NCBI GenBank assembly: GCA_963705375.1
Contig: OY970071.1
Coordinates: 390,001-422,000 of the forward strand
Reading direction: 5' to 3'
From: Candidatus Saccharimonadota bacterium
GTDB lineage: Archaea > Micrarchaeota > Micrarchaeia > Micrarchaeales > Micrarchaeaceae
Length of the DNA stretch: 32,000 bases
Shown one piece after another: positions 5,576 through 22,370 of this stretch. Within the stretch, counting starts at the first letter, position 1. Each line of letters begins with the position of its first letter. A program made the position numbers and the translations under genes. The notes below the pieces were generated by a model. The model searched no databases and was not told the DNA's origin. It saw only the letters and a program-made list of their open reading frames with translations.

Positions 5576-6714
5576 GGAGCTTCTCCCTCTCTGAGGAGAT
5601 TGACCTTCCTCATCGTCAGCAGGTAACTTTTCTCCTTGAAGACTTGCACCTTGAGCTTCTTCAGCAGGTCAGCGAATGCGGCCTCGAACCTGTAATTCCT
5701 AACATGGATGCTGATTATCCCATTCTTGCGCAACGAGAGCCGGACATACAACTGGTAAGCTCCAGGCTTGCCCTTTATTCGCAGCGTAATGTAGTCTATG
5801 TGCATGCCGTGGAGCTTTTCGATCTCTGACATGAATTTGTTGAGCGCCTCCCTGAGGTCGTCTTGGTATTGATAGGTGTAAGAATCGAAACCGGAGACAT
5901 ACACTCTTCTTTCATGTATGCGCTTCCTCACCATGATGTTCTCGAGCACGTCGAATACGGTGATTATTCCGATAGGCGCCGCATTCTTCGTCACAAGCAA
6001 CGATGATATGTTGTGCTCAATGAATTGACGCACCGCGTCAGATATGCCAAGATCTTGGGGTATCGAAACGACATTCGACACCATGATGCTGCTCACTGGA
6101 ACATTTGACGGCGAATACGACTTCGTCTTGCCTTCGGGCAAACGGTCAGGAGATACTGCAAATTTGCGCATTATGTCATAGCCTGTTACCAGCCCTGTAA
6201 ACTTTCCGCCCTGCAGCACAGCAAGCCTATCGACATTGTGCCCGTGCATCGAAGCGAATGCCTCTGAGACGTTCGCGTTTGAGTCTATCGCAAGCACAGG
6301 TGTCGTCATGGCCTCACGCACCTGCAGGCTTTCGAGCGCACCGAGAGATAGAAGCATCTTGAGCAGCGTGTTGCGTTCGAGTATGCCACCTATCTTATCA
6401 CCGTTCATGAATGGCAGGGCCCTGACCCTTGCGCTGTAGAAATAATACACCACGTCGTCCACAGCGGTGCTGTTCGTTATCCTTGGCACCCTGACAGCAT
6501 ACTTCCCTATGCTCTCGCTTGAAGGAAGCTTTAGGCTGTGCCCTGCCCGATATATCGATTTTGAATCGACGATGCCGTAGTATTCCTTGTTCTTTGTTAT
6601 TATGACGGCCTTGTACTTGTCAAGAGATTGAAAGACTTTTCCAACAGGTGTTTTGTAGTCGAAAAACACTGTCTTCGCCACTAGCTTGTCCGGGATGTTG
6701 ATATCTTCGATCAT
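5572..6714 (-). CDS. Protein with four CBS domains (two Bateman modules) and a C-terminal beta-alpha-beta-beta-beta-alpha domain resembling RaiA/HPF
   Basis: Four CBS-like segments, for example MTTPVLAIDSNANVSEAFASMHGHNVDRLAVLQGGKFTGLVTGYDIM and MVSNVVSIPQDLGISDAVRQFIEHNISSLLVTKNAAPIGIITVFDVLENIM. I prefer the ATG at 6714 (MIEDINIPDK...) because a TATA-like box lies about 30 nt upstream and the 31 extra track codons cover intergenic repeat sequence. The stop overlaps the GTG of the downstream pilin-like gene (GTGA). Confidence 0.8.
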   Translation of the reverse strand: MIEDINIPDKLVAKTVFFDYKTPVGKVFQSLDKYKAVIITKNKEYYGIVDSKSIYRAGHSLKLPSSESIGKYAVRVPRITNSTAVDDVVYYFYSARVRALPFMNGDKIGGILERNTLLKMLLSLGALESLQVREAMTTPVLAIDSNANVSEAFASMHGHNVDRLAVLQGGKFTGLVTGYDIMRKFAVSPDRLPEGKTKSYSPSNVPVSSIMVSNVVSIPQDLGISDAVRQFIEHNISSLLVTKNAAPIGIITVFDVLENIMVRKRIHERRVYVSGFDSYTYQYQDDLREALNKFMSEIEKLHGMHIDYITLRIKGKPGAYQLYVRLSLRKNGIISIHVRNYRFEAAFADLLKKLKVQVFKEKSYLLTMRKVNLLREGEAP

Positions 6715-6718
6715 GAAT

Positions 6719-6751
6719 AAGACCAAAAGAATATGAAAGAAAAAGTATAAG
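6719..6751 (-). promoter_or_regulatory. Promoter-like AT-rich box (copy A), duplicated at 8465-8500
   Basis: aagaccaaaagaatatgaaagaaaaagtataag matches aagaccagaaggatatgaaagataaagtataaa at 8465-8497, with about 4 mismatches over 33 nt. On the reverse strand it reads CTTATACTTTTTCTTTCATAT and sits about 30 nt upstream of the CBS ATG. Confidence 0.4.
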
Positions 6752-6790
6752 TACCAGGACGGTACGTGTGCGCAGAGAGTCCGGTGCTTC
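6752..6790 (+). pseudogene. Degenerate fragment of the 5' half of tRNA-Cys, a relic of the tandem duplication
   Basis: ccaggacgg / tacgtg / tgcgcagag are collinear with ccaggatgg / tacgtg / ctgcagag of the intact tRNA-Cys at 8523-8606. The D-loop and part of the anticodon stem are deleted, and no T-arm or 3' acceptor strand is present. Confidence 0.4.
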
Positions 6791-6803
6791 ACGTCTGTAA
6801 AGC

Positions 6804-8363
6804 TCAAACAGGCACGCCGAATTGCAAGCGCGGCATCGAACCGCTTGGCGGGTAGATGCGTGTGCGCATCCAGTAATAGAATTCTTTTGCGTTAGAATCG
6901 ATGTGGAAGCCGACATAAACGGGATTTATGCCCGACGAGCCGTACGCCATAGCATACATCGGTGCGCCGTAGTTGATAGAATAGAAACCTGAAGATGTGG
7001 TCGCACCTGTCGTAAGCACGTAGAATTGGTTCATGTTCGGTAGAGGCACGGATCCTGCATTCACATCGCCGTCAGAGTAGACCTCCCAGTTTTGGGCGCC
7101 AGAACTGAAGGTGCCCCAAAGCCACAGACCGAAATCGCCAGTCGTCACGCCTCCATTGTTGGCCTGCACAGAGGTTCCAAGAAATATGCTTCCATACCCT
7201 ACCTGCTGCGCCTCGCCATACGCATCATAGACAAAATTCATATTGTGGTATGAAGTGCCGGTGTAAACGGCACCTATATCGTCGACATAATATGGAGAAG
7301 TAACCGTCAGGCCATTTGATGCGGACGCGCCCAAGTATTGATTGAGAGAAAATCCTGACAGCGATTCTGAGTTTGCAAAATCATTATAGTAGCTGAACAC
7401 GCTTGCACCATCGTCATATTGGCCATAAGTGCCAGATAGCTGCGGAGCTTCCCCTGTCGAGAGCCCGTCAAAGAGGTTTGTCGAAGTCGAGGCAAACCCC
7501 AAGTATATCGTGTTGGAGCAATGAGAGCACATGAATGCGCTGCTGGAGGCTATGCGGACCCAATATATTGTGTTTGCAGAAGTCGATAGATACAGAGTGT
7601 TTGAAGCTGTGTTCAGCAAAGAGTTGCTTGCCGAGCCTTCAAGCCAATAAGGGACGACAGTGCCATTTGAGTAGAAGAACTCGATGTTGCTAAGGTCTCC
7701 GGCCTCATACGATCGGTACGCCACGGAGTTGACGGGCATCATTATCTGTGAATTGGCAGGGAATGCTGAAGTGCGCGTGTTGGTCAGCAGTATAGGGACA
7801 TAATGCACAATGCCTGCAGGGATTGATGCTGGCGCGGAATAGCCTATCGAAGTTGTTGCAGCGGAAGCTGTTGATGCCGAAACAAAGGACATTGCAGAGA
7901 CATAGACACAGGGCTGGCCTGGGTCCGTGATGCAAGAACTCATCGCACTCACGTTGACAAGATACGTGCCTGGCTGTGTCAGCTGCTCGAGATAGCCGCT
8001 GACGTTGACGGGAGTATAAGCAGTCACATAGCTGAGGCCTATGCTGGTTTTTACGATGAAGGTTATCTCGTGCCCTATCAGGTTGTTCTGTGTGCCGACG
8101 TATATGCTGTGCACATCAGGAGGAACCTGTATCAGCACGGTCTGCCTGGCAGGATAGCCCTGGGAGCCTATCGCAGTCGCGATGCTGGAGAGTTTTGAGG
8201 CGGTGCTCTGGGCTATGCTCACTGAAAGGGAAGCAGACGAGGTCGTTATTTGCAGAAGAGCCAATATCAATACGGGCAGGAGTATCAGCAAGCCAAACGC
8301 AAGAGTTACTAGGAGCTCGAGGCTGGACTGCGACCTCATAGAAATTTCTCGCTGCGCACTCAC
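6804..8363 (-). CDS. Pilin-like protein with class III signal peptide and a large C-terminal putative adhesin region (DUF2341-like plus concanavalin-A/LamG-like), 519 aa
   Basis: GTG start. The N-terminus MSAQREISMRSQSSLELLVTLAFGLLILLPV is paralogous to the 5072-5575 gene. The C-terminal part shows VPILLTN...NIEFFYSNGTVVPYWLEG...IYWVRI (DUF2341-like) and ends with YYWMRTRIYPPSGSMP, a tail typical of LamG-like archaeal surface proteins. Confidence 0.65.
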   Translation of the reverse strand: MSAQREISMRSQSSLELLVTLAFGLLILLPVLILALLQITTSSASLSVSIAQSTASKLSSIATAIGSQGYPARQTVLIQVPPDVHSIYVGTQNNLIGHEITFIVKTSIGLSYVTAYTPVNVSGYLEQLTQPGTYLVNVSAMSSCITDPGQPCVYVSAMSFVSASTASAATTSIGYSAPASIPAGIVHYVPILLTNTRTSAFPANSQIMMPVNSVAYRSYEAGDLSNIEFFYSNGTVVPYWLEGSASNSLLNTASNTLYLSTSANTIYWVRIASSSAFMCSHCSNTIYLGFASTSTNLFDGLSTGEAPQLSGTYGQYDDGASVFSYYNDFANSESLSGFSLNQYLGASASNGLTVTSPYYVDDIGAVYTGTSYHNMNFVYDAYGEAQQVGYGSIFLGTSVQANNGGVTTGDFGLWLWGTFSSGAQNWEVYSDGDVNAGSVPLPNMNQFYVLTTGATTSSGFYSINYGAPMYAMAYGSSGINPVYVGFHIDSNAKEFYYWMRTRIYPPSGSMPRLQFGVPV

Positions 8364-8676: not shown

Positions 8677-10368
8677 TCATCGGATCTGCGCGGATTGGAC
8701 TATGCTTTCATCAGGATAACTGCCCATGCAGTAGATGTAGCCGCCTGAGACTATGCAGCTAGTAGGTGCTTCTCCTTCATAGAGAGTATTGGTGGTCTGC
8801 CACACAGAGACGATCCCGTTGCCAAGGATCTGCGTGGTTTGGACGACGTTTTCTTGAGACATCCCACCACCCATGCAGTAGATGTAGCCATTTACTGTGA
8901 CGCAGCCTAGGCCATCTGCAGTAGCAGCGAGAGAATTGGTAGTCTGCCATGCCGAGACAAGCCCGTTGCCAAGGATCTGAGAAGATTGGACGAGGTCCCA
9001 GGGATACTCGCCACCCATACAGTAGAGGTAGCTGCCTGATGTGATGCAGCTATGGCCTGCTTCAGCTTCGTAGAGCGAATTGGTGGTCTGCCATGCAGAG
9101 ACAAGCCCGTTGCCAAGGATCTGCGCATATTGGACTGTGCTGTCTTGATTTTGGCCATATACGTGTGATGCGCCGCCCATGCAGTCGATGTAGCCACCTG
9201 AGACGACGCAGCTAGGAAACGCTTCTCCAACTACGAGCGTATTGGTGGTGGTCTGCCATGCCGAGACAAGCCCGTTGCCAAGGATATGCGCATATTGGAC
9301 TGTGCTTTCATAAGAAATATCTCCCGCTCCCTGGTTAGAATGGATACCGCCCATGCAATAGATGTAGCTGCCTGATGTGACGCAGCTAAACTGATATTCT
9401 TCGGTAGCAAGCGAATTGATAGGCTGCCATGACGAGACGATCCCGTTGCCAAGAATCTGTGCGGATTGGACGGTGGCAGTGACGTCGCCAGCAGGATCAG
9501 TGCCGCCCATGCAGTAGATGTAGCTGCCTGAGGTTACGCAGCTAATGCCCTCTTCTTCAGAATAGAGTGAATTGGTGGGGCGCCATATCGAGGTGCTATA
9601 AGAATAAGATAAAAAGCTTGCAGTTTCTGTGACCGCTCTCGTAGGCAGCGTGAGCGTCCACGGGGTCGAGCTGTGTGAAAGTGTGCCTGTCCAGTTCCTG
9701 AATGAGTAGTCGGCGTCTGGCGTCGCAGTAAGGGTGATAGTGTTTCCGGAATTGTAGTTTCCGGTGCAAGGTATCGTCGAACCTGCCGAACTGCACGACA
9801 CTGAGCCGCCAGAGCCAGCAGTTGCAGAGAAAGCATATGTAGAAGAGGATGGTATGGTCGTAGTGCCCCCACCCCCTCCACCGCCGTTTCCGAAGCCTGT
9901 GACCTTGGCACTTACAGATGCGATCTGCGCTACAAGATTAGATTGACCACTCTGGTTGTACCGCAGCCAGAGTGTTCCAGAGAAAGGAGTACCGAGTGCA
10001 TCCGAAGGCAGTGCGCACGGGAAGTCAACATTCTGCTGCGCACCTGCAGCAAGAGTAATATTCGCAGGGCTGAAACTGGAAGGCGCGGAAGAGCCGCTAG
10101 AGCAAGCTATGCCCGTAACATTTATCGGCCGGGAAGAGCCTATCGTCGTCGACAACAGACCATTGGAAAGCAGGACAGGATTACTGCACAAATAGCCTAC
10201 GCGCGTCGAGCACGCTGTGCTCGCAACGCCCGTGCCACTGTTGAAAACACCCAAGCTGAACAGAGAAGCGAGCACGACAGCAATTATCAGAATGGCCCAC
10301 CCATATGTCATAAGGTATTCCATTGCGGACTGGGCCTTCGCTCCAGATTTAAGAATGCACTTGTCCAC
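8677..10368 (-). CDS. Pilin-like protein: class III signal peptide, pilin-like domain, Gly7 linker, InlB-B-repeat-like Ig domain and a six-bladed Kelch-like beta-propeller
   Basis: KSGAKAQSAMEYLMTYGWAILIIAVVLASLF is a textbook archaeal class III signal. The track start (ATG 10443) would give a 37-aa leader, so I prefer the GTG at 10368 (leader MDKCILKSGAKAQ); this start is uncertain. Downstream come GNGGGGGGGTTT and then YAFSATAGSGGSVSCSS...ITLTATPDADYSFRNWTG. Six repeats of about 48 aa follow the pattern ILGNGxVSxWQxxNxL....C(V/I)xSGxY(I/L)YCMGG. Confidence 0.7.
   Translation of the reverse strand: MDKCILKSGAKAQSAMEYLMTYGWAILIIAVVLASLFSLGVFNSGTGVASTACSTRVGYLCSNPVLLSNGLLSTTIGSSRPINVTGIACSSGSSAPSSFSPANITLAAGAQQNVDFPCALPSDALGTPFSGTLWLRYNQSGQSNLVAQIASVSAKVTGFGNGGGGGGGTTTIPSSSTYAFSATAGSGGSVSCSSAGSTIPCTGNYNSGNTITLTATPDADYSFRNWTGTLSHSSTPWTLTLPTRAVTETASFLSYSYSTSIWRPTNSLYSEEEGISCVTSGSYIYCMGGTDPAGDVTATVQSAQILGNGIVSSWQPINSLATEEYQFSCVTSGSYIYCMGGIHSNQGAGDISYESTVQYAHILGNGLVSAWQTTTNTLVVGEAFPSCVVSGGYIDCMGGASHVYGQNQDSTVQYAQILGNGLVSAWQTTNSLYEAEAGHSCITSGSYLYCMGGEYPWDLVQSSQILGNGLVSAWQTTNSLAATADGLGCVTVNGYIYCMGGGMSQENVVQTTQILGNGIVSVWQTTNTLYEGEAPTSCIVSGGYIYCMGSYPDESIVQSAQIR
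8680..9560 (-). repeat. Six tandem coding repeats of about 144 nt (Kelch-like blades) inside the pilin-like gene
   Basis: Six CMG(G/S) blade cores recur: SYIYCMGG (twice), GYIDCMGG, SYLYCMGG, GYIYCMGG and GYIYCMGS. Each is preceded by QILGNG(I/L)VSxWQ. Confidence 0.7.
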
Positions 10369-10581
10369 ACGTGATTCCTGCCATTTTAACGGCACAGATA
10401 CATCACAAACAAACAATAAAAGGTTAAGCCTTCTGCCGAGCATGTAACCTTTACCATACGATAAGATGTTCGAATACAGAAGCAGATATCAGATACCACT
10501 TATTATTGTCAGGTAAAATCGTCTCAGGGCACTTGCCAGGTGTTGGAGCTGGCGGAGCGGATAGGAAGCCAGACGTCCAAG

Positions 10582-11607
10582 TCATCTAGAAATGTTTTCT
10601 ATATTTTTGGCATAAGGTTGAGAACAGACGCTCTGCGGGGCATTATTATCTGCTTCGCATATCTTCGCGGTTAGTAGATTTGCTTCTCCTATGATGGCCT
10701 GTGACTGCAATGAAGAGGTATTGTATATCATTGATACTACAGCTCCCCAGTTGCCATTACTAAAAATATTGAGGGGATCGTAGCCTGCACTCACAATAGC
10801 GGAGCTATTCGCAAAGTCTACAAAAGGTATACCGCCACAGGCTTTTGGTGGTGCATGAGTGTTACCGAGATCGATAGTTGAAAATATGTACTGCTCAGAT
10901 GAATTAGGTTGTTGGAGTAGGCCATACCCCATGAATCCTGTGGGGTTTTCTGTTTTTTGATTTGTTGTTTCTTCAATACCCACAAAAGAAATGTAAGAGC
11001 TAGTATAGGTCGAGTTATAGAAGGTGAAGGTAGGGGTCGATGGAGCATAGTCTGTAGCAGAGGAGGTCATAAAGTGAAGATTTGAGAAATTACCGAACCT
11101 TAGCAAAGCCATAATGATGGCCCATCTTTCTGCAGCACAATAAGGGCAGAACTCTGCACCGATGTATAGAATCTCTGGTTTATCATTGAGGGTTAGCGAA
11201 GGGGCATTGTCTATAGAGAAAATACTAGAAGGGCGGGCAGTACCTATACCTACCTGGTTGCTTATGTTATTTGGTATTTCAAGACTTGAAAGCACATATT
11301 GTGGGACAGGTTTATTATCGTAGCTAACAAGCGCTGTGCTGTTTTTGTTGCACGCCCCATTGGCACTCGGGGGATTCCAAATCATTTTGCTAAACGGCTT
11401 TGAACTGATAGTGATTGGGGCTTGCGAGCCGATCGAGTTTGTAATTGTGGTCGAAACGCTTGTGAGTATCGGAATATTGCTGCTTGACGAAAGAAAAATA
11501 TACACGATATAAAGAAGCATCAACAATATCAGACATGCTGAACCAAAAGCGGCCGTAAGTATCGGCGCTTTTCTGCACCTTACGACATTGGCTGATCTTT
11601 TACGCAC
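10582..11607 (-). CDS. DUF929-family membrane-anchored thioredoxin-like protein with a CPYC motif
   Basis: N-terminal TM helix ([26 protein letters not shown]). The core reads [64 protein letters not shown], which matches the conserved DUF929 core as I remember it. The start is a GTG in the track. Confidence 0.7.
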
Positions 11608-11799
11608 CTATACACCGATTGATCGACTCCAAATGTATCATATTAGAAGTACTAAGCCGTTTCTGTTTGACTTTGCCCTTATGCTTTAAAACACCAATAT
11701 CTAAAGGTGCCTTTGGTACCTCAAACAGGATGAGAAAAACTTGAACCCAATAAAGAAGCCGCAAGATAAATCTAAAAAGGTATACAGGGAATGTAACTC

Positions 11800-12825
11800 A
11801 TGCCAAAGAAAGGTGCTGCGAATATCATAGATTCGCTTGAAAAAATGGCAAAAGGCCTGAATAAGAGAGTAATATTCCCTGAAGGCAGCGATGAAAGGAT
11901 TATTGAAGCTGCAGAAATCGCAAGGAAGGTAAAAATCATAAAACCAATCCTCGTAGGCAACGAGAAGGAAATATCTGAGACTGCAAGGAAGCTCGGAATC
12001 AATCTGGATAATTTTGAAGTGGTAGAGCCTTCGAAGAGCGACAGGTTGGAAAGGTATGCAGCGTTATATTCTAAGATTTCAGGAGTGCCTGAACGCACAG
12101 CCACACTAATCGTCCGGCAACCGCTATTCTATTCTGCGATCGCGCTGGAAAGCCGAGACGTGGATGGGATGATTGGAGGCGCAGTCTACACTTCCGCGGA
12201 TTTTGAAAGCGTGTGTGAAAAAGTCATTGGGCTAAGGAAAGGAATCAGTGTGCCCTCCAGCTTTTTCATAATGGAAATTCCGGATTATGAAGGGGGGGAG
12301 AACGGCGTTTTGATATACGCAGACGCTTCTGTAAATCCAAACCCTACGGCTGAAGAGCTCGCAGACATAGCCGTTTCCACAGGGATGACAGCAAAGACGC
12401 TGCTGGGATGGAAGCCCAGAATCGCAATGCTCTCGTTTTCTACCAAAGGAAGCGCCGTTCATCACGATGTCAGCAAAGTTGTCGAGGCTACAGAGATAGC
12501 AAAAAGAAAGGCAAAAGGAACAGGCATAGAGATAGATGGTGACCTGCAGGCCGATGCCGCGCTAGTCCTTTCAACTGCAGAGAGAAAAATGAACGGAATG
12601 ATAGGAAAGGTTGCTGGCAGAGCCAACATACTTATATTTCCGGATCTTGATGCAGGGAACATATCATACAAACTGACACAGACACTTGCTAAGGCAAACG
12701 CGTATGGCCCAGTACTGCAAGGCTTTGACATGCCGCTGAGCGATCTTTCCAGAGGAGCAAAGGTAAAAGACATTTTCGGAGTGATAACTATTGTTGCAGC
12801 CATAGCGGATAAGTGGAAAAAATGA
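11800..12825 (+). CDS. pta: Phosphate acetyltransferase (short PTA_PTB-type)
   Basis: VIFPEGSDERIIEAAEIA, ADASVNPNPTAEELADIA, LSFSTKGSA, GDLQADAAL and IFPDLDAGNISYKL are canonical Pta blocks. The 341-aa length matches the short form. Confidence 0.9.
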   Translation: MPKKGAANIIDSLEKMAKGLNKRVIFPEGSDERIIEAAEIARKVKIIKPILVGNEKEISETARKLGINLDNFEVVEPSKSDRLERYAALYSKISGVPERTATLIVRQPLFYSAIALESRDVDGMIGGAVYTSADFESVCEKVIGLRKGISVPSSFFIMEIPDYEGGENGVLIYADASVNPNPTAEELADIAVSTGMTAKTLLGWKPRIAMLSFSTKGSAVHHDVSKVVEATEIAKRKAKGTGIEIDGDLQADAALVLSTAERKMNGMIGKVAGRANILIFPDLDAGNISYKLTQTLAKANAYGPVLQGFDMPLSDLSRGAKVKDIFGVITIVAAIADKWKK

Positions 12826-14009
12826 ACAAGATACTCACTCTGAACTGTGGTAGCTCTTCGATAAAATACAGGCTGTTCGATAAGAATTTCGACACAATCA
12901 TAACAGGATTGATTGAGAAGATAGGGGAGAAAGGAACTGAGCTGGTGCACACAAAAGGGGAGAACACCCTAAAGAAGGAGGTAGACGTAAAAGACCACAG
13001 GCAAGCTATAGATCTGATGCTGAAGATGCTCCATGATAGGGAATGGGGCGCGATAAAGAGGGTGACGGAAATTTCAGTTGTCGGCCATAGGGTCGTTCAC
13101 GGAGGACAATTAACTAAGCCAGGTCTTGTATCTAAAGCAGTATTGAACTATCTGAGATCGTTTGAACTGCTAGCCCCATTGCACAACCCACACAATATAA
13201 CTGGAATAGAAGAGGCCAAAAAGGCTATGCCGACGGTCCCTCAGGTCATGGTGTTTGATACTGAGTTTCATCAGACCATGCCCAGGAAGGCATACATGTA
13301 TGGATTGCCTTACAACTTCTTTGACAAATACGCAATCAGGAGATACGGGTTCCACGGGATATCGCATAGGTATGTTTCGGGCAGGGCGGCACAGATGCTC
13401 AGAAAGAAAAATCCAAATCTCATCACATGCCATCTCGGTGCAGGCTCTAGCCTGGCTGCAATAAGAAATGGAAAATCTGTTGATACCACCATGGGCCTTA
13501 CCCCGTTGGAGGGCGTGATGATGGCCACGAGAACAGGAGACATAGATCCATCCGCCATGCAGTACCTGGTAAAGAAATACGAGTTCGATTATGATGAGTT
13601 GTTCAAAATAATGAATAACAATAGCGGCCTGCTCGGCATATCCGGAGTCAGCAAGGACGTGCGGGATATCGAGGCGAGAGCAAAGAAGGGAAATGAGAGG
13701 TGCAGACTTGCATTGGAAATGTTCTGCTACAGGGTGGCAAAGTACATCGGAGCCTACGCCGCAGTACTAGGAAACGTCGATGCGATAGTATTCACAGCAG
13801 GGATTGGCGAGAATTCGGCATCCACGAGAAATGAAATCTGTTCGTACCTGAAAATATTCGGGATAAAGCTGGACCCTGTAAAAAACAGGAAGGCGGTGGA
13901 GAAGGAGATGAAGATTAGCGCAAGAGTTTCCAGGATAAAGGTGCTGGTCATCCCAACAGATGAAGCATTGATGATAGCAAAACAAGCTGCTGAGGCCATA
14001 GGCGATTGA
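12822..14009 (+). CDS. ackA: Acetate kinase
   Basis: MNKILTLNCGSSSIKYRLFD, GHRVVHGG, RRYGFHGISH, CHLGAGSSLAAI, MMATRTGDIDP and VFTAGIGENS are canonical AckA motifs. The ATG at 12822 overlaps the pta stop (ATGA). An upstream ATG at 12813 is an alternative start. Confidence 0.92.
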   Translation: MNKILTLNCGSSSIKYRLFDKNFDTIITGLIEKIGEKGTELVHTKGENTLKKEVDVKDHRQAIDLMLKMLHDREWGAIKRVTEISVVGHRVVHGGQLTKPGLVSKAVLNYLRSFELLAPLHNPHNITGIEEAKKAMPTVPQVMVFDTEFHQTMPRKAYMYGLPYNFFDKYAIRRYGFHGISHRYVSGRAAQMLRKKNPNLITCHLGAGSSLAAIRNGKSVDTTMGLTPLEGVMMATRTGDIDPSAMQYLVKKYEFDYDELFKIMNNNSGLLGISGVSKDVRDIEARAKKGNERCRLALEMFCYRVAKYIGAYAAVLGNVDAIVFTAGIGENSASTRNEICSYLKIFGIKLDPVKNRKAVEKEMKISARVSRIKVLVIPTDEALMIAKQAAEAIGD

Positions 14010-14023
14010 TTATTGGCGATATA

Positions 14024-14407
14024 ATGGAAGGTGCTGTGAAAGGGTTGGGGATCGACATTGTCGACATAAACAAATTCAAGAGCATCATCGGCGGAAATAG
14101 GGGAAAGAATTTCATAGACAGCACCTTCACAAAGGCAGAATTCGCACACGCAGTCTCTATCATAAAGCCGTTCTGCCCGCTCAGCCTGGCAGCCAACTTT
14201 GCAGCCAAGGAAGCCACATACAAGGCGTTTGGAACTGGATGGATCGAAGGAAAAGGTGTGGAGGTGATTCATCAGAAGAGTGGCGCGCCGCGTATCGTAC
14301 TTCACGGAAAAATACAAGAGATAGCCAAAAAGAGAAAGGTGAAAGAAGTGATGGTGAGTCTTTCCTACACAGACTTGAATGCCGCAGCAGTAGTGCTTCT
14401 TATTTGA
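14024..14407 (+). CDS. acpS: Holo-[acyl-carrier-protein] synthase (AcpS-type 4'-phosphopantetheinyl transferase)
   Basis: GLGIDIVDINKF, FAAKEATYKAFG, SGAPRIVLHG and VSLSYTDLNAAAVVLL follow the AcpS pattern, and the size of about 127 aa fits. The track ORF opens at TTG 14006, overlapping the ackA stop; I prefer ATG 14024. Confidence 0.8.
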   Translation: MEGAVKGLGIDIVDINKFKSIIGGNRGKNFIDSTFTKAEFAHAVSIIKPFCPLSLAANFAAKEATYKAFGTGWIEGKGVEVIHQKSGAPRIVLHGKIQEIAKKRKVKEVMVSLSYTDLNAAAVVLLI

Positions 14408-14599
14408 GCCACACGGCCGAATCTTCTACTGCACTGATTAAGCCATTCTTACTAAGTTTTATTTCGGCCGAAAGGAGAACGGGTTCTCTAGCGAATAAAG
14501 GAACACAGATGGCAAATACCTTGCTGGTGCGTCTGGGAATGAACCCTAATTTGCGATAAGTATTTAAGGATGTTGATTGAGGGTATAATGGGGATTCAG

Positions 14600-15865
14600 A
14601 TGGCACAAAAAGCAGCAATCGTCGGTGTCGGATGCACCAAATTTGGAAATATAATGACAGACCCTGAACTAAAGGATCTGACCTTCCAGGAGATGGTATG
14701 TAAAGCGGCGTTCGAAGCAATGGATGACGCAGGAATTTCTCCAGAAGACATCGATGCGTTTTTTGTGGGGAACATGCTCTCGCACACTTCGCAAGTCTAC
14801 AGCCACGCCACGCTTATGGCGGATTGGCTCGGATTAAGAGACAAGGGAGGTTTCCACTTTGATACTGCATGCTCAACAACCAATACAGGAATGGGAATCG
14901 CATCAGATTCCATCAAATCAGGCAAATACAAAAATGTTCTGGTTGTTGCCGGAGAGATAACGTCATCTGTTCCTAAAAATTACAATCCGTTGACAAGAGA
15001 GGCGATAGATGCCCAGACATTATGGGAGTGGACGGATTTTGGCATGGACCATGTTTATGCCTATCACCATTGCTATGATGTGGCCTCAGCCTATGGCGCA
15101 ATTCCCACAATGGGATACATGAAAAAGTACGGACTAAGTTTTGAGAAGATGGACGAGGCAATGTATCATGTAAACAAAGCAGTAAGGATGCATGCTTCGT
15201 TGAATCCGAAAGCGCTAATAAAGGAGGATATGGAACATCTGGCCAAATCAAAGGGATTCAAGGATCCATTTGAATACTGGAAAAGTTCAAACAATCCGTT
15301 CTTTGCTTGGCCAACAAGGCTGTTGAGTGCTTTGAACACTGCAGACGGAGCCTCGGCGTTTGTAGTCTCCGGCGAACCACAAAAATATGACAAGAAAACG
15401 CCAGTTGAGATTATGGGCTTCCACTGGGCAGCCTGCAACTACCCATGGTATGGCAGGGACTCGACCACGATGCCGCAAGACGAGATAGCGTTCAAAGGTG
15501 CGTATAAGATGGCAGGAATTACGCCAAAAGACATAGACTATCTCTACGTGCACGACTGCATGCAGATCCATCAATTGGAAGTTTCCGAAATAGCAGGTTA
15601 TTTCCCGAAAGGAGAGTCCTGGAAAGCGTTCATGGATGACAGAACAACATATAAGGGAGACAAGCCGCTAAACACATCTGGAGGGAGGCATGGGTTGGGT
15701 CATGCATTTGAAGCTTCGGCAGGGGCAGAGACCTACCACATCGTCAAACAGATGCGCGGCGAAGCCGGCAAGCTTCAGTTCAAGACGAAGCCTAAGATAG
15801 CGGTTCAGCATAACCATGGTTATGGCATGCATAGTGCTGTGACAGTGTTAAAGAGCGGTGATTGA
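14600..15865 (+). CDS. Thiolase-like protein (SCP-x / archaeal acetyl-CoA C-acetyltransferase type)
   Basis: MAQKAAIVGVGCTKFG, nucleophile-Cys block FDTACSTTNTGMGIASDSIKSGKYKNVLVVAGE, and C-terminal NTSGGRHGLGHAFEASAG. I prefer ATG 14600, which has a TATTTAAG box about 35 nt upstream; the track start at 14570 is less likely. Confidence 0.85.
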   Translation: MAQKAAIVGVGCTKFGNIMTDPELKDLTFQEMVCKAAFEAMDDAGISPEDIDAFFVGNMLSHTSQVYSHATLMADWLGLRDKGGFHFDTACSTTNTGMGIASDSIKSGKYKNVLVVAGEITSSVPKNYNPLTREAIDAQTLWEWTDFGMDHVYAYHHCYDVASAYGAIPTMGYMKKYGLSFEKMDEAMYHVNKAVRMHASLNPKALIKEDMEHLAKSKGFKDPFEYWKSSNNPFFAWPTRLLSALNTADGASAFVVSGEPQKYDKKTPVEIMGFHWAACNYPWYGRDSTTMPQDEIAFKGAYKMAGITPKDIDYLYVHDCMQIHQLEVSEIAGYFPKGESWKAFMDDRTTYKGDKPLNTSGGRHGLGHAFEASAGAETYHIVKQMRGEAGKLQFKTKPKIAVQHNHGYGMHSAVTVLKSGD

Positions 15866-16270
15866 ATGGACTTCAATATAGCGAAAAAATTCTACGACAA
15901 TCTGGCGAAAGGAAAAATAGTGGGAATAAAGTGCAATAAGTGCAAAAAGTACACGTTCCCACCGATGCTGTTGTGCAGAGAATGTAGCAGCAATGATGTG
16001 ACTTTGGTCGGGATGTCCGGCAGAGGTAAGGTGTATTTCTACTCCAACACCATGCTTCCGGCAAAGAAATTTGCAAAGGAGCCTGCCTCAGCATACGGAC
16101 TTGTTAAGCTAGAAGAAGGGCCAGTATTCTTCACAAAGATCAACAATGCGGACATATCGAGCCCGCAGGCCATAGAAAAAGGAAACAACAAGCTGCCTTT
16201 GGATGTGAAGGCTAAAATCAAAAAAATAGCCGGAATGAACATCGTAACATTTGATATTGCAAAGAGCTGA
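15866..16270 (+). CDS. DUF35 Zn-ribbon/OB-fold protein, the usual partner subunit of archaeal-type thiolases
   Basis: CNKCKKYTFPPMLLCRECSS is a C-x2-C-x11-C-x2-C ribbon, followed by GKVYFYSNT and an OB-like region. Its ATG abuts the thiolase stop with no gap. Confidence 0.8.
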   Translation: MDFNIAKKFYDNLAKGKIVGIKCNKCKKYTFPPMLLCRECSSNDVTLVGMSGRGKVYFYSNTMLPAKKFAKEPASAYGLVKLEEGPVFFTKINNADISSPQAIEKGNNKLPLDVKAKIKKIAGMNIVTFDIAKS

Positions 16271-16293
16271 ACAGGCAATAAGAGAGTGAAGGC

Positions 16294-16545
16294 ATGAAAA
16301 AAGACGAAGTAGAGCAGAGGTTCAAGACGATCGTTGCCGATCTTTTTGGCGTGAATGTCAAAAAGTTAGAAGATGGCACAAGGTTCGTACAAGATCTGCA
16401 CGTCAAGTCGATTGACATAATCGCGCTGATCGCTGCGACAGAGGGAGAGTTCGGCATAAAGCTAACTCCACAGGAAGCGAGCCAGAACACGACAGTGAAG
16501 AAGACCATCGACTGCATCAAGAAGAAGCTCAAGAGCGCAAAGTGA
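16294..16545 (+). CDS. Acyl carrier protein-like protein (83 aa, PP-binding type)
   Basis: VQDLHVKSIDIIALIAATEGEFGIKLTPQEA aligns with the ACP helix II consensus D-L-G-x-D-S-L-D...E-E-F-G-I, and the Ser of KSID sits at the phosphopantetheine attachment position. Size and helical pattern fit an ACP. Confidence 0.7.
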   Translation: MKKDEVEQRFKTIVADLFGVNVKKLEDGTRFVQDLHVKSIDIIALIAATEGEFGIKLTPQEASQNTTVKKTIDCIKKKLKSAK

Positions 16546-19869: not shown

Positions 19870-21399
19870 ATGGAGTACAGAAAGACCGAGATCCTTGGAA
19901 TAGCATTGCTGTTAGTGACGTTCCTCTTTGCTTCGGTGAACTCGATTGCATTGAGCAGCCCGGCGGTGCTTGACACGGATCCCAGCACTTACGTGATAGT
20001 CGTAATGATGATGCTGTTCCTCTTCATGATCTTCTCATTGAAGGAGGACCTGAGATTCGAGTACAAAAAGGAGAACATAGCGTACTCGATAGCGATATTT
20101 GTTGCGTACATACTGATCTTGTCGTACGCAAGGGTTGCGCTCTCGACAGCGTTCGAGTCATACAGAGTCGATTCACTTCTTTTCCCCTTATTGCTAATGG
20201 CGATGATAACTGCGCTGTTCGGCCTTGATGGGATAAAAAAGATGAAGTATTTGGAGGCCTACGCAGTGTTTGCGTCGCCCCTTTTGTTGTTGCGGATCCT
20301 CTCACTTGATAATGCATTCGCACATGTTAATGCCGTGACAATATACAGCCTGCTGAAAGCGATAGGCATGCCTGTCTCTAATTCCGGATTGGTGATAAGC
20401 GCAGGGAATATATCCAGCATCACGATATCGACTACGTGCGTATCATTGGGGATTTTTGCTGCGTTCATAATGTTCATGATCCCCATAGCGTATCTTTATG
20501 AAGGCGATGCCAGGTCCAAGGCATTCTGGCTCTGTTCGGGATGCGCCCTTCTGCTCGTGCTCAACATTCTAAGGATGTTTGGCCTGTCCTTGATGTGGAT
20601 GTACTATGGGATAGGATCGGTGGAAAACCTGATCCATACCTTTGCCGGCCAGATGCTGTTCTACATCACAATAGTAGCCATGGTGTTGCTCGCTTACAAG
20701 TACGGGCTTTTCTTGAAGAAACCTAAGAATGGCAAAAACTCGAAGAGTAAGAAAAGAGAACATTTGCAGAAAAACCTGATAATTCCTGCGGCAGTCGTTA
20801 TTGCTTTTGGACTGGCGTCGTTTATCCTATCATCACAGTACAGCACCGCCGCGTACGCCCCGGCGATTTCCTTCGGCAGAAGCACAGCAAATCCCATCTT
20901 GAACATTACAGAGCTAAGAAGCCTGGAAGTGGCAAACACCAACATCGTGCAGACAGGCGCAATCAAAGTTGGCAGCATGTTTGTGCTCCAAGGCAACAGC
21001 ACAAACAGCTCCACGTATGTCATTGCAACCGATTTGCAGAGCCCTGCGCAAGGCAAAACGGTGGTCAGTTATGATTCCATCAGAGACGAACACGCGTACG
21101 TTCTGCGTAACGGCGTCACGCTAAGAAGCGCGTTGGTAAGATCAGGGAACTTAAGCTTCTACGTCAACTATTTTGCGCTTCCTTATAATTTAAGCAGCAA
21201 CTATACCTCGATCAACTATGAAATTTTCAGGCTGGCAAAGAACGGAAGTGTTCCTTCATGTGGCGCGCTGAACTCGACGTCAGTCGGGTTTGAGAATTAT
21301 TTTGAGTCCGTCATCTACAACACGATGCGCCTTGATTTCAACTACAGCAACAAAGGGATCATGTGTGAGAGTTATCGTGTGGCAAGCGTGATCAAATGA
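19870..21399 (+). CDS. Exosortase/archaeosortase-family protein with an additional C-terminal extracytoplasmic domain of about 190 aa
   Basis: Polytopic N-terminal 280 aa carrying the family triad in order and spacing: Cys190 (ITISTTCVSLG), Arg235 (LVLNILRMFG) and His256 (ENLIHTFAGQ). A basic loop follows (KKPKNGKNSKSKKRE), then one more TM helix and a sequon-rich soluble domain. Confidence 0.6.
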   Translation: MEYRKTEILGIALLLVTFLFASVNSIALSSPAVLDTDPSTYVIVVMMMLFLFMIFSLKEDLRFEYKKENIAYSIAIFVAYILILSYARVALSTAFESYRVDSLLFPLLLMAMITALFGLDGIKKMKYLEAYAVFASPLLLLRILSLDNAFAHVNAVTIYSLLKAIGMPVSNSGLVISAGNISSITISTTCVSLGIFAAFIMFMIPIAYLYEGDARSKAFWLCSGCALLLVLNILRMFGLSLMWMYYGIGSVENLIHTFAGQMLFYITIVAMVLLAYKYGLFLKKPKNGKNSKSKKREHLQKNLIIPAAVVIAFGLASFILSSQYSTAAYAPAISFGRSTANPILNITELRSLEVANTNIVQTGAIKVGSMFVLQGNSTNSSTYVIATDLQSPAQGKTVVSYDSIRDEHAYVLRNGVTLRSALVRSGNLSFYVNYFALPYNLSSNYTSINYEIFRLAKNGSVPSCGALNSTSVGFENYFESVIYNTMRLDFNYSNKGIMCESYRVASVIK

Positions 21400-22370
21400 A
21401 GTTTGTTTTTGATGCCGGTGTTATCGTTTATAAAGGCCTAGGCACACGGAGAGAGTACCTGTTCCTGAGGAACCCGAGCGGCTGGCTTGACACGCCTAAA
21501 GGACACATGGAAGAGGGCGAGAGCACAGAAGAAGCCGCACTGAGGGAGACGGAGGAAGAGGCAGGCATCAAGGTGAATCCTGACCCGTTCTTCCGGGACA
21601 GCGTAGAGTACTGGTACGCGGAAAAGGGAGAGCGAACAAAGAAGAGGGTCACATTCTTACTGGCAGAAGTCGCAAAGGACACCAAGATCAAAGTGTCCGA
21701 CGAGCACGTCGATTACGCATGGTTGGACTACGCCTCTTCTTTGAAGATGCTTTCGTTCAAAGACCAAAAGGAGCTCATTGCCAGAGTCGGCGAATACATC
21801 GACAGACTTGAAGAGGTGCGAAAACTTAACGAGGAATACCGTGCGTTGCCGGCAAAGCAGAAGGCATGGGACCTCAGCAGGAGCTTCGTGACTGGCGAGG
21901 GCCCCCTTAACGCGAAAATCATGTTTGTAGGACAAGCGCCCGGAAGGCAAGAGGACCAGCAGGGAAGGCCTTTCGTTGGAACGTGTGGAAAGCTTCTTGA
22001 CAGGATGATCGGGCTTGCGGGCCTGAGCAGGAAGAATGTGTACATCACCAGCGTAGTGCAATTCTTCCCGCCGAAGAACAGGATGCCGACAGAAGAAGAG
22101 GTTAACATGTGCAAGAGGTTCCTTCTAAAGCAGATAAAGATAGTGAACCCTGAACTGATTGTCCTTCTCGGAGCGCTTGCATCAAAGACGCTTGCGAACG
22201 TCGACAGTGTGACCAAGGATCACGGAAAACTCCTGAAGCATGACGGGCGTGACTATTTGGTGATGCTGCACCCTGCAGCGGCTGTCAGGCTCAAGAAGTT
22301 CGTGCCGGTGATGGAGGGAGACTTCAGGAAGTTGAAGAGCATTGTGCAGCCGGCTTCAAAGAATGCCTAG
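21396..22370 (+). CDS. Fusion protein: N-terminal Nudix hydrolase and C-terminal uracil-DNA glycosylase-superfamily domain
   Basis: The Nudix box is GHMEEGESTEEAALRETEEEAGI. The UDG-like motifs are KIMFVGQAPGRQEDQQGRPFVGTCGKLLDRMI and VMLHPAAAVR. The start overlaps the archaeosortase stop (ATGA at 21396-21399). Confidence 0.75.
   Translation: MKFVFDAGVIVYKGLGTRREYLFLRNPSGWLDTPKGHMEEGESTEEAALRETEEEAGIKVNPDPFFRDSVEYWYAEKGERTKKRVTFLLAEVAKDTKIKVSDEHVDYAWLDYASSLKMLSFKDQKELIARVGEYIDRLEEVRKLNEEYRALPAKQKAWDLSRSFVTGEGPLNAKIMFVGQAPGRQEDQQGRPFVGTCGKLLDRMIGLAGLSRKNVYITSVVQFFPPKNRMPTEEEVNMCKRFLLKQIKIVNPELIVLLGALASKTLANVDSVTKDHGKLLKHDGRDYLVMLHPAAAVRLKKFVPVMEGDFRKLKSIVQPASKNA

Follow-up and report, generated by a model that had tools for sequence, protein, structure and literature searches.

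The window analysed here, a stretch of 32,000 nucleotides (nt) of contig OY970071.1 in assembly GCA_963705375.1 (positions 390,001 to 422,000 of the forward strand), comes from an archaeon and contains six co-directional genes at 11800–16545. They encode a phosphotransacetylase-like enzyme (Pta), an acetate kinase (AckA), a holo-acyl carrier protein synthase (AcpS), a thiolase, a DUF35 protein and an acyl carrier protein (ACP). The same six genes were found, in rearranged orders, in dozens of unrelated genomes. They are a real, functionally linked unit in which an ACP and a dedicated AcpS are tied to thiolase/DUF35 and to Pta-AckA, as had been proposed in an earlier note made from the window alone. 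Comparison of the sequences makes it, in our judgement, somewhat probable that the six genes form a self-contained module for handling acetyl groups on a carrier protein instead of coenzyme A (CoA).

In the mechanism that we propose, AcpS would convert apo-ACP to holo-ACP at Ser39, and AckA would interconvert acetate plus ATP and acetyl-phosphate. The Pta clade to which the window enzyme belongs would interconvert acetyl-phosphate plus holo-ACP and acetyl-ACP plus inorganic phosphate, a PlsX-like function on a Pta scaffold. Thiolase/DUF35, one of several partners that may load or unload the carrier, would condense two acetyl units to acetoacetyl-ACP or cleave a 3-ketoacyl thioester with holo-ACP as acceptor, and in the cleavage direction the acetyl units would pass via acetyl-phosphate to ATP.

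Recurrence of the six genes and of a thiolase-free cassette

GTDB was scanned at one genome per species with a thiolase alignment as query, and the best 80 of 135 loci were kept and scored with the six window proteins, genes being stop-to-stop open reading frames (ORFs) detected by phmmer or hmmsearch. Among these best 80 of 135 loci, all six genes were present in 31, five genes (no ackA nearby) in eight and a partial set in 14, seven of these being cut by contig ends; thiolase-DUF35 alone was found in 27, 13 of them with at least 5 kb of downstream sequence. At least 10 gene orders and orientations were observed. The commonest layout has thl-duf35-acp converging on pta-ackA-acpS, and the fully co-directional order of the window was seen in none of the 80 loci. 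All six genes were also present in the neighbourhood of each of three thiolase homologues, from a Woesearchaeote, a metagenome contig and Halodesulfurarchaeum, the last with its ACP gene inside the pta operon. Chance falls far short of explaining the clustering, as dozens of unrelated genomes share the same set in spite of its rearrangement.

Archaeal hosts of the module include Micrarchaeota, Woesearchaeota, Asgard archaea (Borr-, Sif- and Promethearchaeota) and Halodesulfurarchaeum, and bacterial hosts include Patescibacteria, Clostridia (e.g., Geosporobacter ferrireducens), Chloroflexota, Deltaproteobacteria, Desulfatiglandales and Syntrophomonadaceae. The module is at least as common in bacteria, and the earlier description of it as an archaeal peculiarity was not upheld. 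The six families were shown to co-evolve (pairwise-distance correlations r = 0.60–0.92). Trees of thiolase and Pta were alike in dividing a clade of DPANN, Asgard, candidate phyla radiation (CPR) and Halodesulfurarchaeum sequences from a clade of ordinary bacteria. With two deep clades in midpoint-rooted neighbour-joining trees that lack a reliable root, the bacterial origin that had been suspected was not established, and choosing between a bacterial and an archaeal origin by rooting is not possible from such trees.

Clustering of all flanking ORFs in 51 loci detected no recurrent seventh enzyme family beside the module, and no reductase, dehydratase, 3-hydroxy-3-methylglutaryl-CoA (HMG-CoA) synthase, cyclase or tailoring enzyme was recurrent there. 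The sole recurrent extra gene in these loci was a divergently transcribed AraC-type regulator, present in 16 bacterial loci. As noted earlier, no FabH/FabF, reductase, dehydratase or HMG-CoA synthase was found among the window ORFs of at least 120 amino acids (aa). The bacterial type II fatty-acid synthesis set (FabD, FabH/FabF, FabG, FabZ and FabI) was not detected in the window, and the Fab families were not recurrent within 6 kb of the module in the 51 loci, whole genomes not having been searched. Upstream of the bacterial modules, no riboswitch and no other RNA element was found; a molybdenum cofactor riboswitch detected in L043 (loci are given by L numbers where they need to be told apart) belongs to the next operon. 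The neighbours of thiolase-DUF35-only homologues in Alphaproteobacteria and Flavobacteriaceae were metabolically uninformative. Two module loci showed further peculiarities: the Woesearchaeote L018 (7931–11682) carries a tandem duplication, thl-DUF35-ACP followed by a second thl-DUF35 pair, in which the first of the two thiolases has diverged far more (425 vs. 623 bits), and in a Caldilineaceae metagenome-assembled genome (MAG), L087, a GCHY-1 gene (FolE2-type GTP cyclohydrolase, PF02649) lies inside the module (11810–12214).

An ACP-AcpS-Pta-AckA cassette was also found without the thiolase. In four loci (L089, L090, L105 and L122) it stands beside a Peptidase_S15/CocE-NonD hydrolase. L089 encodes a natural AcpS-Pta fusion protein (P0228, 4433–5911), and this fusion adjoins ACP and a Peptidase_S15/PepX_C hydrolase. 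Pairing of the cassette with such a hydrolase suggests that a serine hydrolase or acyltransferase may exchange acyl groups with the carrier. In L095 (7941–12186), a GlmU-like protein of 424 aa (NTP_transf_4 plus hexapeptide repeats) is encoded between ackA and acp. The cassette stands alone, with no obvious partner, in L091 and L092. The conserved and portable core is ACP, AcpS, the distinct Pta clade and AckA. Thiolase/DUF35, after which the earlier note named the system, is not its centre but belongs to a range of exchangeable partners that go with this cassette.

Several details of these thiolase-free loci may be recorded. A hydrolase of about 590 aa (S15, CocE/NonD alpha/beta type) takes the place of thiolase/DUF35 in L090 (4474–9686), L105 (2649–6879) and L122 (6794–11620), and a TetR-type regulator is located upstream of the cassette in L089 and L090. 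L089 also contains a second AcpS-like ORF (5928–6335) followed by AckA-like fragments (6262–7232) that resemble a decaying ackA gene. A gene of the glucosamine-6-phosphate isomerase/6-phosphogluconolactonase family lies just upstream in L095. In L091 and L092, a GCHY-1 (PF02649) gene is present beside the cassette (11016–11804 and 9392–10180, respectively). In both loci the gene directly upstream of ACP is of the radical-SAM/SPASM kind, and DUF5981 is encoded downstream.

A separate Pta clade and the proteins encoded with it

The window Pta matched PTA_PTB (PF01515) with 316.7 bits (cut-off 24) and fell under the cut-off of the TIGR00651 equivalog (288.4 vs. 311.2 bits). In a Pta tree of about 100 sequences, all ACP/AcpS-linked enzymes, including that of the window, were placed in one contiguous group apart from the canonical Ptas with R133 and C312, and ACP and AcpS genes were adjacent in 31 of the 32 leaves of this group. 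Pta residues are numbered here as in Methanosarcina thermophila; the Pta sequences of M. thermophila, Porphyromonas gingivalis and Bacillus subtilis and the AckA sequence of M. thermophila were rebuilt from PDB alignments. The catalytic residues Ser309, Arg310 and Asp316 were kept in the window Pta (motif LSDLSRG...KDI). S309 and R310 were found in all module Ptas covering this region, with D316 either kept or replaced by Glu.

Other positions were shown to be altered. In the window Pta, R133, N306 and C312 are replaced by Ser, Ser and Ala, respectively, and the R87 position falls in a shortened loop. R133 was absent from all of the approximately 55 module-linked Ptas, which contain A, S, T, M, L, I or V instead, and K90 was replaced throughout the ACP-linked clade. 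All 47 canonical Ptas sampled had R87, K90 and R133, which are replaced in the ACP-linked clade, and the discriminating positions altogether were 29, 87, 90, 93, 95, 133, 137, 148, 258, 259, 306 and 312. The absence of Arg at 133, the loop deletion and the absence of Cys at 312 co-occur (Fisher 3e-15 and 6e-9; exhaustive search, 1.84 billion representatives). The Pta of L095 falls in the ACP-linked clade, yet keeps Arg at position 133. A Pta-like clade with E133 and A312, found in L093, L096, L097, L099, L100, L106, L125, L147, L159, L170 and L172, constitutes an orphan phosphotransacylase-like family.

The 83-aa ORF at the end of the cluster passed the PP-binding profile (PF00550) with 35.7 bits against a cut-off of 20.8. 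Its Ser39, part of the KSID motif (residues 38–41) pointed out in the earlier note, aligns with Ser36 of Escherichia coli AcpP and was invariant in 52 of 52 sequences; it is the predicted phosphopantetheine attachment site. E. coli AcpP and B. subtilis AcpS served as the reference sequences in these comparisons. Housekeeping ACPs have a conserved Asp before the phosphopantetheine Ser, and the ACPs of fatty-acid synthesis are acidic. In the window ACP the motif reads D-L-H-x-K-S in place of D-S-L; among module ACPs, 48 of 50 carry K or R just ahead of the Ser. The window ACP has an isoelectric point of 9.3, the median for ACPs of the DPANN/CPR clade being 9.4. It scored below all NCBIfam ACP cut-offs (best model 56.3 vs. 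106 bits; TIGR00517 51.7 vs. 70.45 bits). Thus none of the features looked for as marks of a housekeeping AcpP (equivalog score, D-S-L motif and strong acidity) was present in the window protein. A single-sequence AlphaFold model, compared with the four-helix bundle expected of an ACP, was of too low confidence to be used (predicted local distance difference test, pLDDT, 51.7), with helices at the expected places and helix II starting from residue 40.

AcpS exceeded the cut-offs of ACPS (PF01648; 47.4 vs. 25 bits) and TIGR00556 (66 vs. 45.35 bits) and matched NCBIfam holo-ACP synthase models down to 1e-20, the TIGR00516 equivalog being just missed (54.7 vs. 59.8 bits). Equivalents of D8, E58 and K62 (B. 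subtilis numbering) were present in the window protein and in 49 of 49 module AcpS sequences. A charge swap in AcpS that would match the K/R-S motif of the ACP was not seen, the equivalent of R14 still being R or K.

AckA scored 464 bits with Acetate_kinase (PF00871) and 474 bits with TIGR00016 (cut-off 293). The catalytic residues N7, R91, H180, R241 and E384 were found in the window protein and in 39 of 39 module AckAs, and the residues of the acetate pocket (V93, L122, F179 and P232) in the window protein and in 36–39 of the 39. This conservation of the pocket indicates acetyl as the acyl unit. Activation of acetoacetate as well by AckA and Pta, in a closed 'acetoacetate kinase' cycle, was considered unlikely, as the AckA pocket is canonical and small.

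The thiolase matched Thiolase_C_1 (101 bits) and Thiolase_N (41 bits) and was well under the NCBIfam cut-offs (PRK06064 190 vs. 420; archaeal ACAT equivalog NF053570 143 vs. 600). A look-up of its exact sequence returned no record. Its motifs are A-C101-S-T, H328-D329-C330 and G377-H378-A (CxS, HDx and GHx); C101, H328, C330 and H378 did not vary among the 56 sequences, and HDxF has M or S in place of F at its fourth position. The CxS, HDxF and GHx motifs mark a Claisen-type thiolase vs. the PhlC/MucB Friedel-Crafts acylase (PMC12960953, 2026), and retention of CxS, HDx and GHx thus argues for thioester Claisen chemistry and not for acylation of the PhlC/MucB type. The AlphaFold model was of good quality (pLDDT 87.1; predicted template modelling score, pTM, 0.90). 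Its top matches were 7YVY, 6HRV, 6ET9, 7PYT and 6ESQ (query-normalised template modelling (TM) score 0.72–0.80, 20–27% identity), and the matches include archaeal ACATs, BbsB and SCP2-thiolases. The protein is placed in a divergent clade of the SCP2/archaeal-ACAT group with two clade-specific insertions of about 13 residues. The acetoacetyl-CoA thiolase of the archaeal mevalonate route was rejected as an identification in view of the NF053570 score and of HMG-CoA synthase being neither present in the window nor recurrent in the 51 loci. A comparison of ACP-linked thiolases with 12 clearly unlinked ones gave only four cleanly separating positions, which may be candidate determinants of carrier use. 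In the numbering of the 431-aa ORF these are 87, 100, 117 and 393, and the changes are L to T, A to Q beside Cys101, S to A, and K to L.

DUF35 matched zf-ChsH2 (28.1 bits, cut-off 23.2) and was just under the cut-off for OB_ChsH2_C (25.5 vs. 27.1). The zinc-ribbon cysteines 23, 26, 37 and 40 were conserved in 55 of 56 sequences, and the closest solved chain was 6ESQ_E (1e-10), the DUF35 subunit of the thiolase/HMG-CoA synthase complex. DUF35 is presumed to be the partner or scaffold of the thiolase. With their catalytic signatures intact, all members of the module look active.

Weighing of the proposed mechanism

The earlier note had proposed that acetate is converted via acetyl-phosphate to acetyl-CoA, which would feed a thiolase/DUF35 enzyme working with, or handing over to, the carrier protein. 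The link of ACP and AcpS to thiolase/DUF35 and Pta-AckA stood, whereas the CoA step is probably wrong: acetyl-ACP is the likelier product, because the Pta clade nearly always adjoins ACP and AcpS, has lost R87, K90 and R133 and is once fused to AcpS. We infer that Pta may act directly on ACP and that the thiolase may accept ACP thioesters. As to the direction of flux, ATP-yielding cleavage and acetyl-ACP-consuming synthesis appear about equally likely. The presence of AraC- and TetR-type regulators, of hydrolases as partners and of an ATP-yielding AckA suggests catabolism, with acetyl groups being captured to make ATP, and the GlmU-like partner suggests acetyl-ACP as a biosynthetic donor.

A number of observations weigh against this mechanism. 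The support for it comes from comparative genomics throughout; the trees are neighbour-joining only, and some MAG taxon labels, e.g., 'Gammaproteobacteria' and 'Methanosarcinales', are doubtful. AcpS needs CoA as phosphopantetheine donor, and the organisms are therefore not CoA-free. The module encodes neither a source of, nor a sink for, acetoacetyl-ACP. Besides, the 13 thiolase-DUF35 loci with at least 5 kb of downstream sequence belong to the same thiolase family and are without the cassette, so that this type of thiolase can work without an adjacent ACP.

Other points on this side concern the Pta itself and would fit a route on CoA, in which Pta-AckA make acetyl-CoA and thiolase/DUF35 condenses it, followed by handover to ACP or with one CoA and one ACP substrate for the thiolase. 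We regard this route as unlikely. The window Pta keeps all catalytic residues and passes the cut-off of the NCBIfam subfamily PRK09653 (315.4 vs. 310 bits), and CoA thioesters are the substrates of every thiolase relative with a solved structure. R87 and R133 are located in a CoA-binding site, and their mutation mainly affects the Km for CoA (PMC6461089), more than kcat. As this is CoA 'site 2' and the effects of mutation are moderate, loss of these residues is not proof of lost CoA use. Two other Pta clades also lack R133. One has E133 (11 loci) and is accompanied by neither ACP nor AcpS nor AckA; the other has Q133 and occurs mostly with AckA only and with no AcpS nearby. In a metagenome scan, an unbiased control with a mixture of Pta types, AcpS was adjacent to 6 of 30 Ptas without R133 and to 1 of 55 with it. 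Loss of R133 as the sole marker of ACP use was rejected in view of the E133 and Q133 clades and of Fisher's test on ACP-or-AcpS adjacency (p = 0.10), and the clade in the tree is the better criterion. However, a route on CoA leaves unexplained why a Pta clade has ACP and AcpS adjacent in nearly every leaf, why AcpS and Pta are fused in one protein, why an ACP-AcpS-Pta-AckA cassette exists without thiolase, and why R87, K90 and R133 have been replaced jointly.

An improbable alternative, less so than chance adjacency, is a biosynthetic unit in which acetyl-ACP is converted to acetoacetyl-ACP or poly-beta-keto products by non-decarboxylative thiolase condensation; the products would feed a pathway elsewhere, e.g., a variant mevalonate entry, lipid synthesis or a small molecule. 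The GlmU-like acyltransferase of L095 would consume an acetyl donor, which suggests that the acetyl-ACP-forming direction is possible. Both the archaeal mevalonate route and the Sulfolobus fatty-acid synthase begin with a step carried out by a thiolase/DUF35 pair, and the tandem thiolase-DUF35 duplication in L018 would fit as well. However, a reductase, dehydratase, HMG-CoA synthase, cyclase or tailoring enzyme was neither recurrent beside the module in the 51 loci nor found in the window. Condensation by a thiolase is thermodynamically unfavourable unless a pulling step is coupled to it, and many of the hosts belong to DPANN or CPR, whose capacity for biosynthesis is very limited. That a fermentative pta-ackA operon merely lies beside an unrelated ACP/AcpS/thiolase cluster, as might be read from the TATA-like box in the spacer of about 190 nt that parts the two gene trios of the window and from the different nearest relatives of its two halves, is most improbable and effectively refuted by the comparative data, the linkage having been kept in more than 50 genomes of two domains through at least 10 rearrangements, with the Halodesulfurarchaeum ACP gene inside the pta operon, an AcpS-Pta fusion and co-evolving families.

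Returning to acetyl transfer on the carrier protein, we tentatively put forward a broader proposal, which we hold to be possible rather than probable. According to this proposal, the dedicated ACP would be a protein-bound substitute for CoA in central acetyl metabolism, the Pta subfamily a phosphate:acetyl-ACP transferase, and thiolase/DUF35 the first non-decarboxylative thiolase acting on ACP thioesters. DPANN, Asgard and CPR organisms would thereby have a route that makes or breaks C–C bonds while yielding or spending ATP, and the cassette would be a general plug-in that links acyl-enzyme-forming partners (thiolase, S15 hydrolase and hexapeptide acyltransferase) to the ATP pool.

If true, this would overturn the assumption that ACP plays no part in the metabolism of archaea, and Pta/AckA in DPANN, Asgard and CPR genomes could not be read simply as fermentation of acetyl-CoA to acetate. 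Two enzyme families would gain a new substrate class: ACP in the case of Pta, and ACP thioesters in that of a non-decarboxylative thiolase. The Asgard ACP-linked thiolase would then be the kind of intermediate that has been sought between the CoA-based archaeal and the ACP-based bacterial state in the 'lipid divide' debate. The sequence signature of the Pta (positions 87, 90, 133, 306 and 312) is clear and makes the claim directly testable, and the cassette could be a compact, CoA-independent source of acetyl and acetoacetyl thioesters from acetate in engineered cells.

The Micrarchaeota locus and its relation to known systems

All six ORFs of the window were present on the forward strand, and Pfam and NCBIfam searches assigned each of them to the family named in the earlier note (Table 1). 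The gene junctions described there were likewise confirmed by base-by-base reading. The TGA of pta (12823–12825) overlaps the ATG of ackA in an ATGA, and this start yields the typical AckA N-terminus MNKILTLNCGSSS. The TTG start of acpS overlaps the ackA stop, or its ATG lies 14 nt past it. The thiolase TGA (15863–15865) directly abuts the DUF35 ATG, and the ATG of ACP follows the DUF35 stop after a gap of 23 nt. As homologues of the thiolase are about 421 aa long and align from residue 10–11 of the window ORF, the start is most likely ATG 14600 (or 14588), giving 421 aa from 14600, and the spacer length of about 190 nt quoted earlier results if ATG 14600 is used. The box TATTTAAG in this spacer occurs only once in the window and probably marks an internal promoter of the thiolase-DUF35-ACP unit. 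A second promoter in the spacer fits with the gene trios being separate, convergent units in most relatives. No RNA genes were found in the window.

Table 1. Features of the six-gene locus in window coordinates, with protein identities to the corresponding genes of three related loci.
Feature	Position	Strand	Description	L005	L065	L083
pta	11800..12825	+	341 aa; PTA_PTB 2.5e-94; Pta-like, ACP-linked clade	53%	72%	70%
ackA	12822..14009	+	395 aa from ATG 12822 (ORF lister: GTG 12813); Acetate_kinase 3.6e-139	about 49%	76%	73%
acpS	14006..14407	+	127–133 aa; TTG 14006 or ATG 14024; ACPS 2.2e-12	38%	41%	52%
spacer	14408..14599	+	about 190 nt, intergenic; TATA-like box TATTTAAG at 14561–14568			
thiolase, SCP2/archaeal-ACAT type	14570..15865	+	431-aa ORF; Thiolase_C_1 4.6e-29 plus Thiolase_N	84%	47%	46%
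DUF35	15866..16270	+	134 aa, zinc ribbon plus OB fold; zf-ChsH2 1.7e-6 plus OB_ChsH2_C	71%	43%	46%
ACP	16294..16545	+	83 aa; PP-binding 1e-8; NCBIfam ACP models to 2e-15	66%	47%	52%

The closest genome match of the window thiolase was from L005, a MAG that represents the closest Micrarchaeota relative, and L001 resembles L005 (81% identity for the thiolase). Pairwise comparisons placed the thl-DUF35-ACP half of the module nearest to L005 and the pta-ackA-acpS half nearest to L065 and L083. As the two halves have different nearest relatives, the module of the window is a recombinant of two lineages. This mosaic fits its unusual layout and internal TATA-like box and shows that the halves can be swapped.

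The genes flanking the module are archaeal (NMD3, archease, class I lysyl-tRNA synthetase, XPD helicase, DUF929 and an archaeosortase-like protein), and every named relative of the lysyl-tRNA synthetase was from Micrarchaeota/Micrarchaeia. By these flanking genes, the host belongs to the Micrarchaeota (DPANN archaea) and the contig is not a bacterial one. Other genes in the window include one for a giant protein of 1825 aa (25709–31186, reverse strand) that consists nearly entirely of immunoglobulin-like repeats (13 Big_3_5 and eight Big_7 stretches, 790 bits) and is probably a surface or adhesion protein of an ultra-small archaeon. An exosortase/archaeosortase-like gene is located at 19870–21399; its stop is overlapped by 4 nt by an ORF (21396–22370, forward strand) that joins a NUDIX hydrolase and a uracil-DNA glycosylase domain. 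A 588-aa protein with Kelch motifs and an InlB B-repeat-like domain is encoded at 8677–10443 on the reverse strand, and a 40-residue stretch of it showed 82% identity to a translated region of L005.

ACP and ACP synthase are reported to be lacking in almost all archaea (PMC3533463; bioRxiv 10.1101/2024.07.05.601840), in agreement with the rarity stated in the earlier note, and the Pta/Ack genes of DPANN have been read as ordinary acetyl-CoA fermentation (PMC11216029). A full-text literature search whose coverage excluded most subscription journals found no description of an ACP-Pta or ACP-thiolase/DUF35 system. Within that coverage, the combination appears undescribed, as had been supposed, and the cluster is not a well-characterised bacterial operon.

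Among known systems, the archaeal thiolase/HMG-CoA synthase/DUF35 complex of Methanothermococcus thermolithotrophicus (6ESQ/6ET9) likewise has an SCP2/ACAT thiolase (CxS, HDx, GHx) beside DUF35 and is among the closest solved structures (thiolase TM 0.77–0.79 at 24% identity; DUF35 1e-10). It differs in containing HMG-CoA synthase, for which no gene was found in the window or recurrently in the 51 loci, the module having ACP, AcpS and Pta instead. The fatty-acid synthase of Sulfolobus acidocaldarius also uses a ketothiolase/DUF35 to form C–C bonds in an archaeon, but is CoA-dependent and ACP-free and works with a reductase and a dehydratase, whereas the module has ACP and AcpS and neither of these enzymes. 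Several thiolase/DUF35 pairs are present per genome, probably with different substrates (bioRxiv 10.1101/2024.07.05.601840). The PhlABC/MucABC C-acetyltransferases are likewise assemblies of thiolase-like and DUF35 proteins (TM 0.73–0.77), but PhlC/MucB are without HDxF and need an HMG-CoA synthase-like subunit, whereas the module thiolase keeps H328-D-C330 and is accompanied by no HMG-CoA synthase-like gene.

Compared to the Pta-AckA pathway (M. thermophila Pta 1QZT/2AF4 and AckA 1G99; P. gingivalis 6IOW/6IOY), the module enzymes show the same folds and catalytic residues, the window AckA is a canonical acetate kinase like that of the pathway, and pta and ackA are translationally coupled. Unlike the enzyme of that pathway, the module Pta belongs to a separate clade that is nearly always encoded with ACP and AcpS. 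To our knowledge, the only established enzyme for the interconversion of an acyl-ACP thioester and an acyl-phosphate is PlsX. Its substrates are long-chain acyl groups carried by the housekeeping ACP, and it supplies PlsY in bacterial phospholipid synthesis. The likeness to PlsX lies in the proposed reaction alone, as the families differ (FA_synthesis vs. PTA_PTB) and the module would handle an acetyl unit on a dedicated ACP; a search of the window Pta for the PlsX family (PF02504, FA_synthesis) gave no match, PTA_PTB alone being reported at E ≤ 0.1.

Small acyl groups on a dedicated carrier, with the priming enzyme encoded in the same operon, are known from citrate lyase and malonate decarboxylase. 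The carriers of these enzymes bear 2'-(5''-phosphoribosyl)-3'-dephospho-CoA and are not PP-binding/AcpS systems. Both systems share with the module the concept of an enzyme-primed carrier that replaces free CoA, but involve neither Pta nor AckA nor a thiolase.

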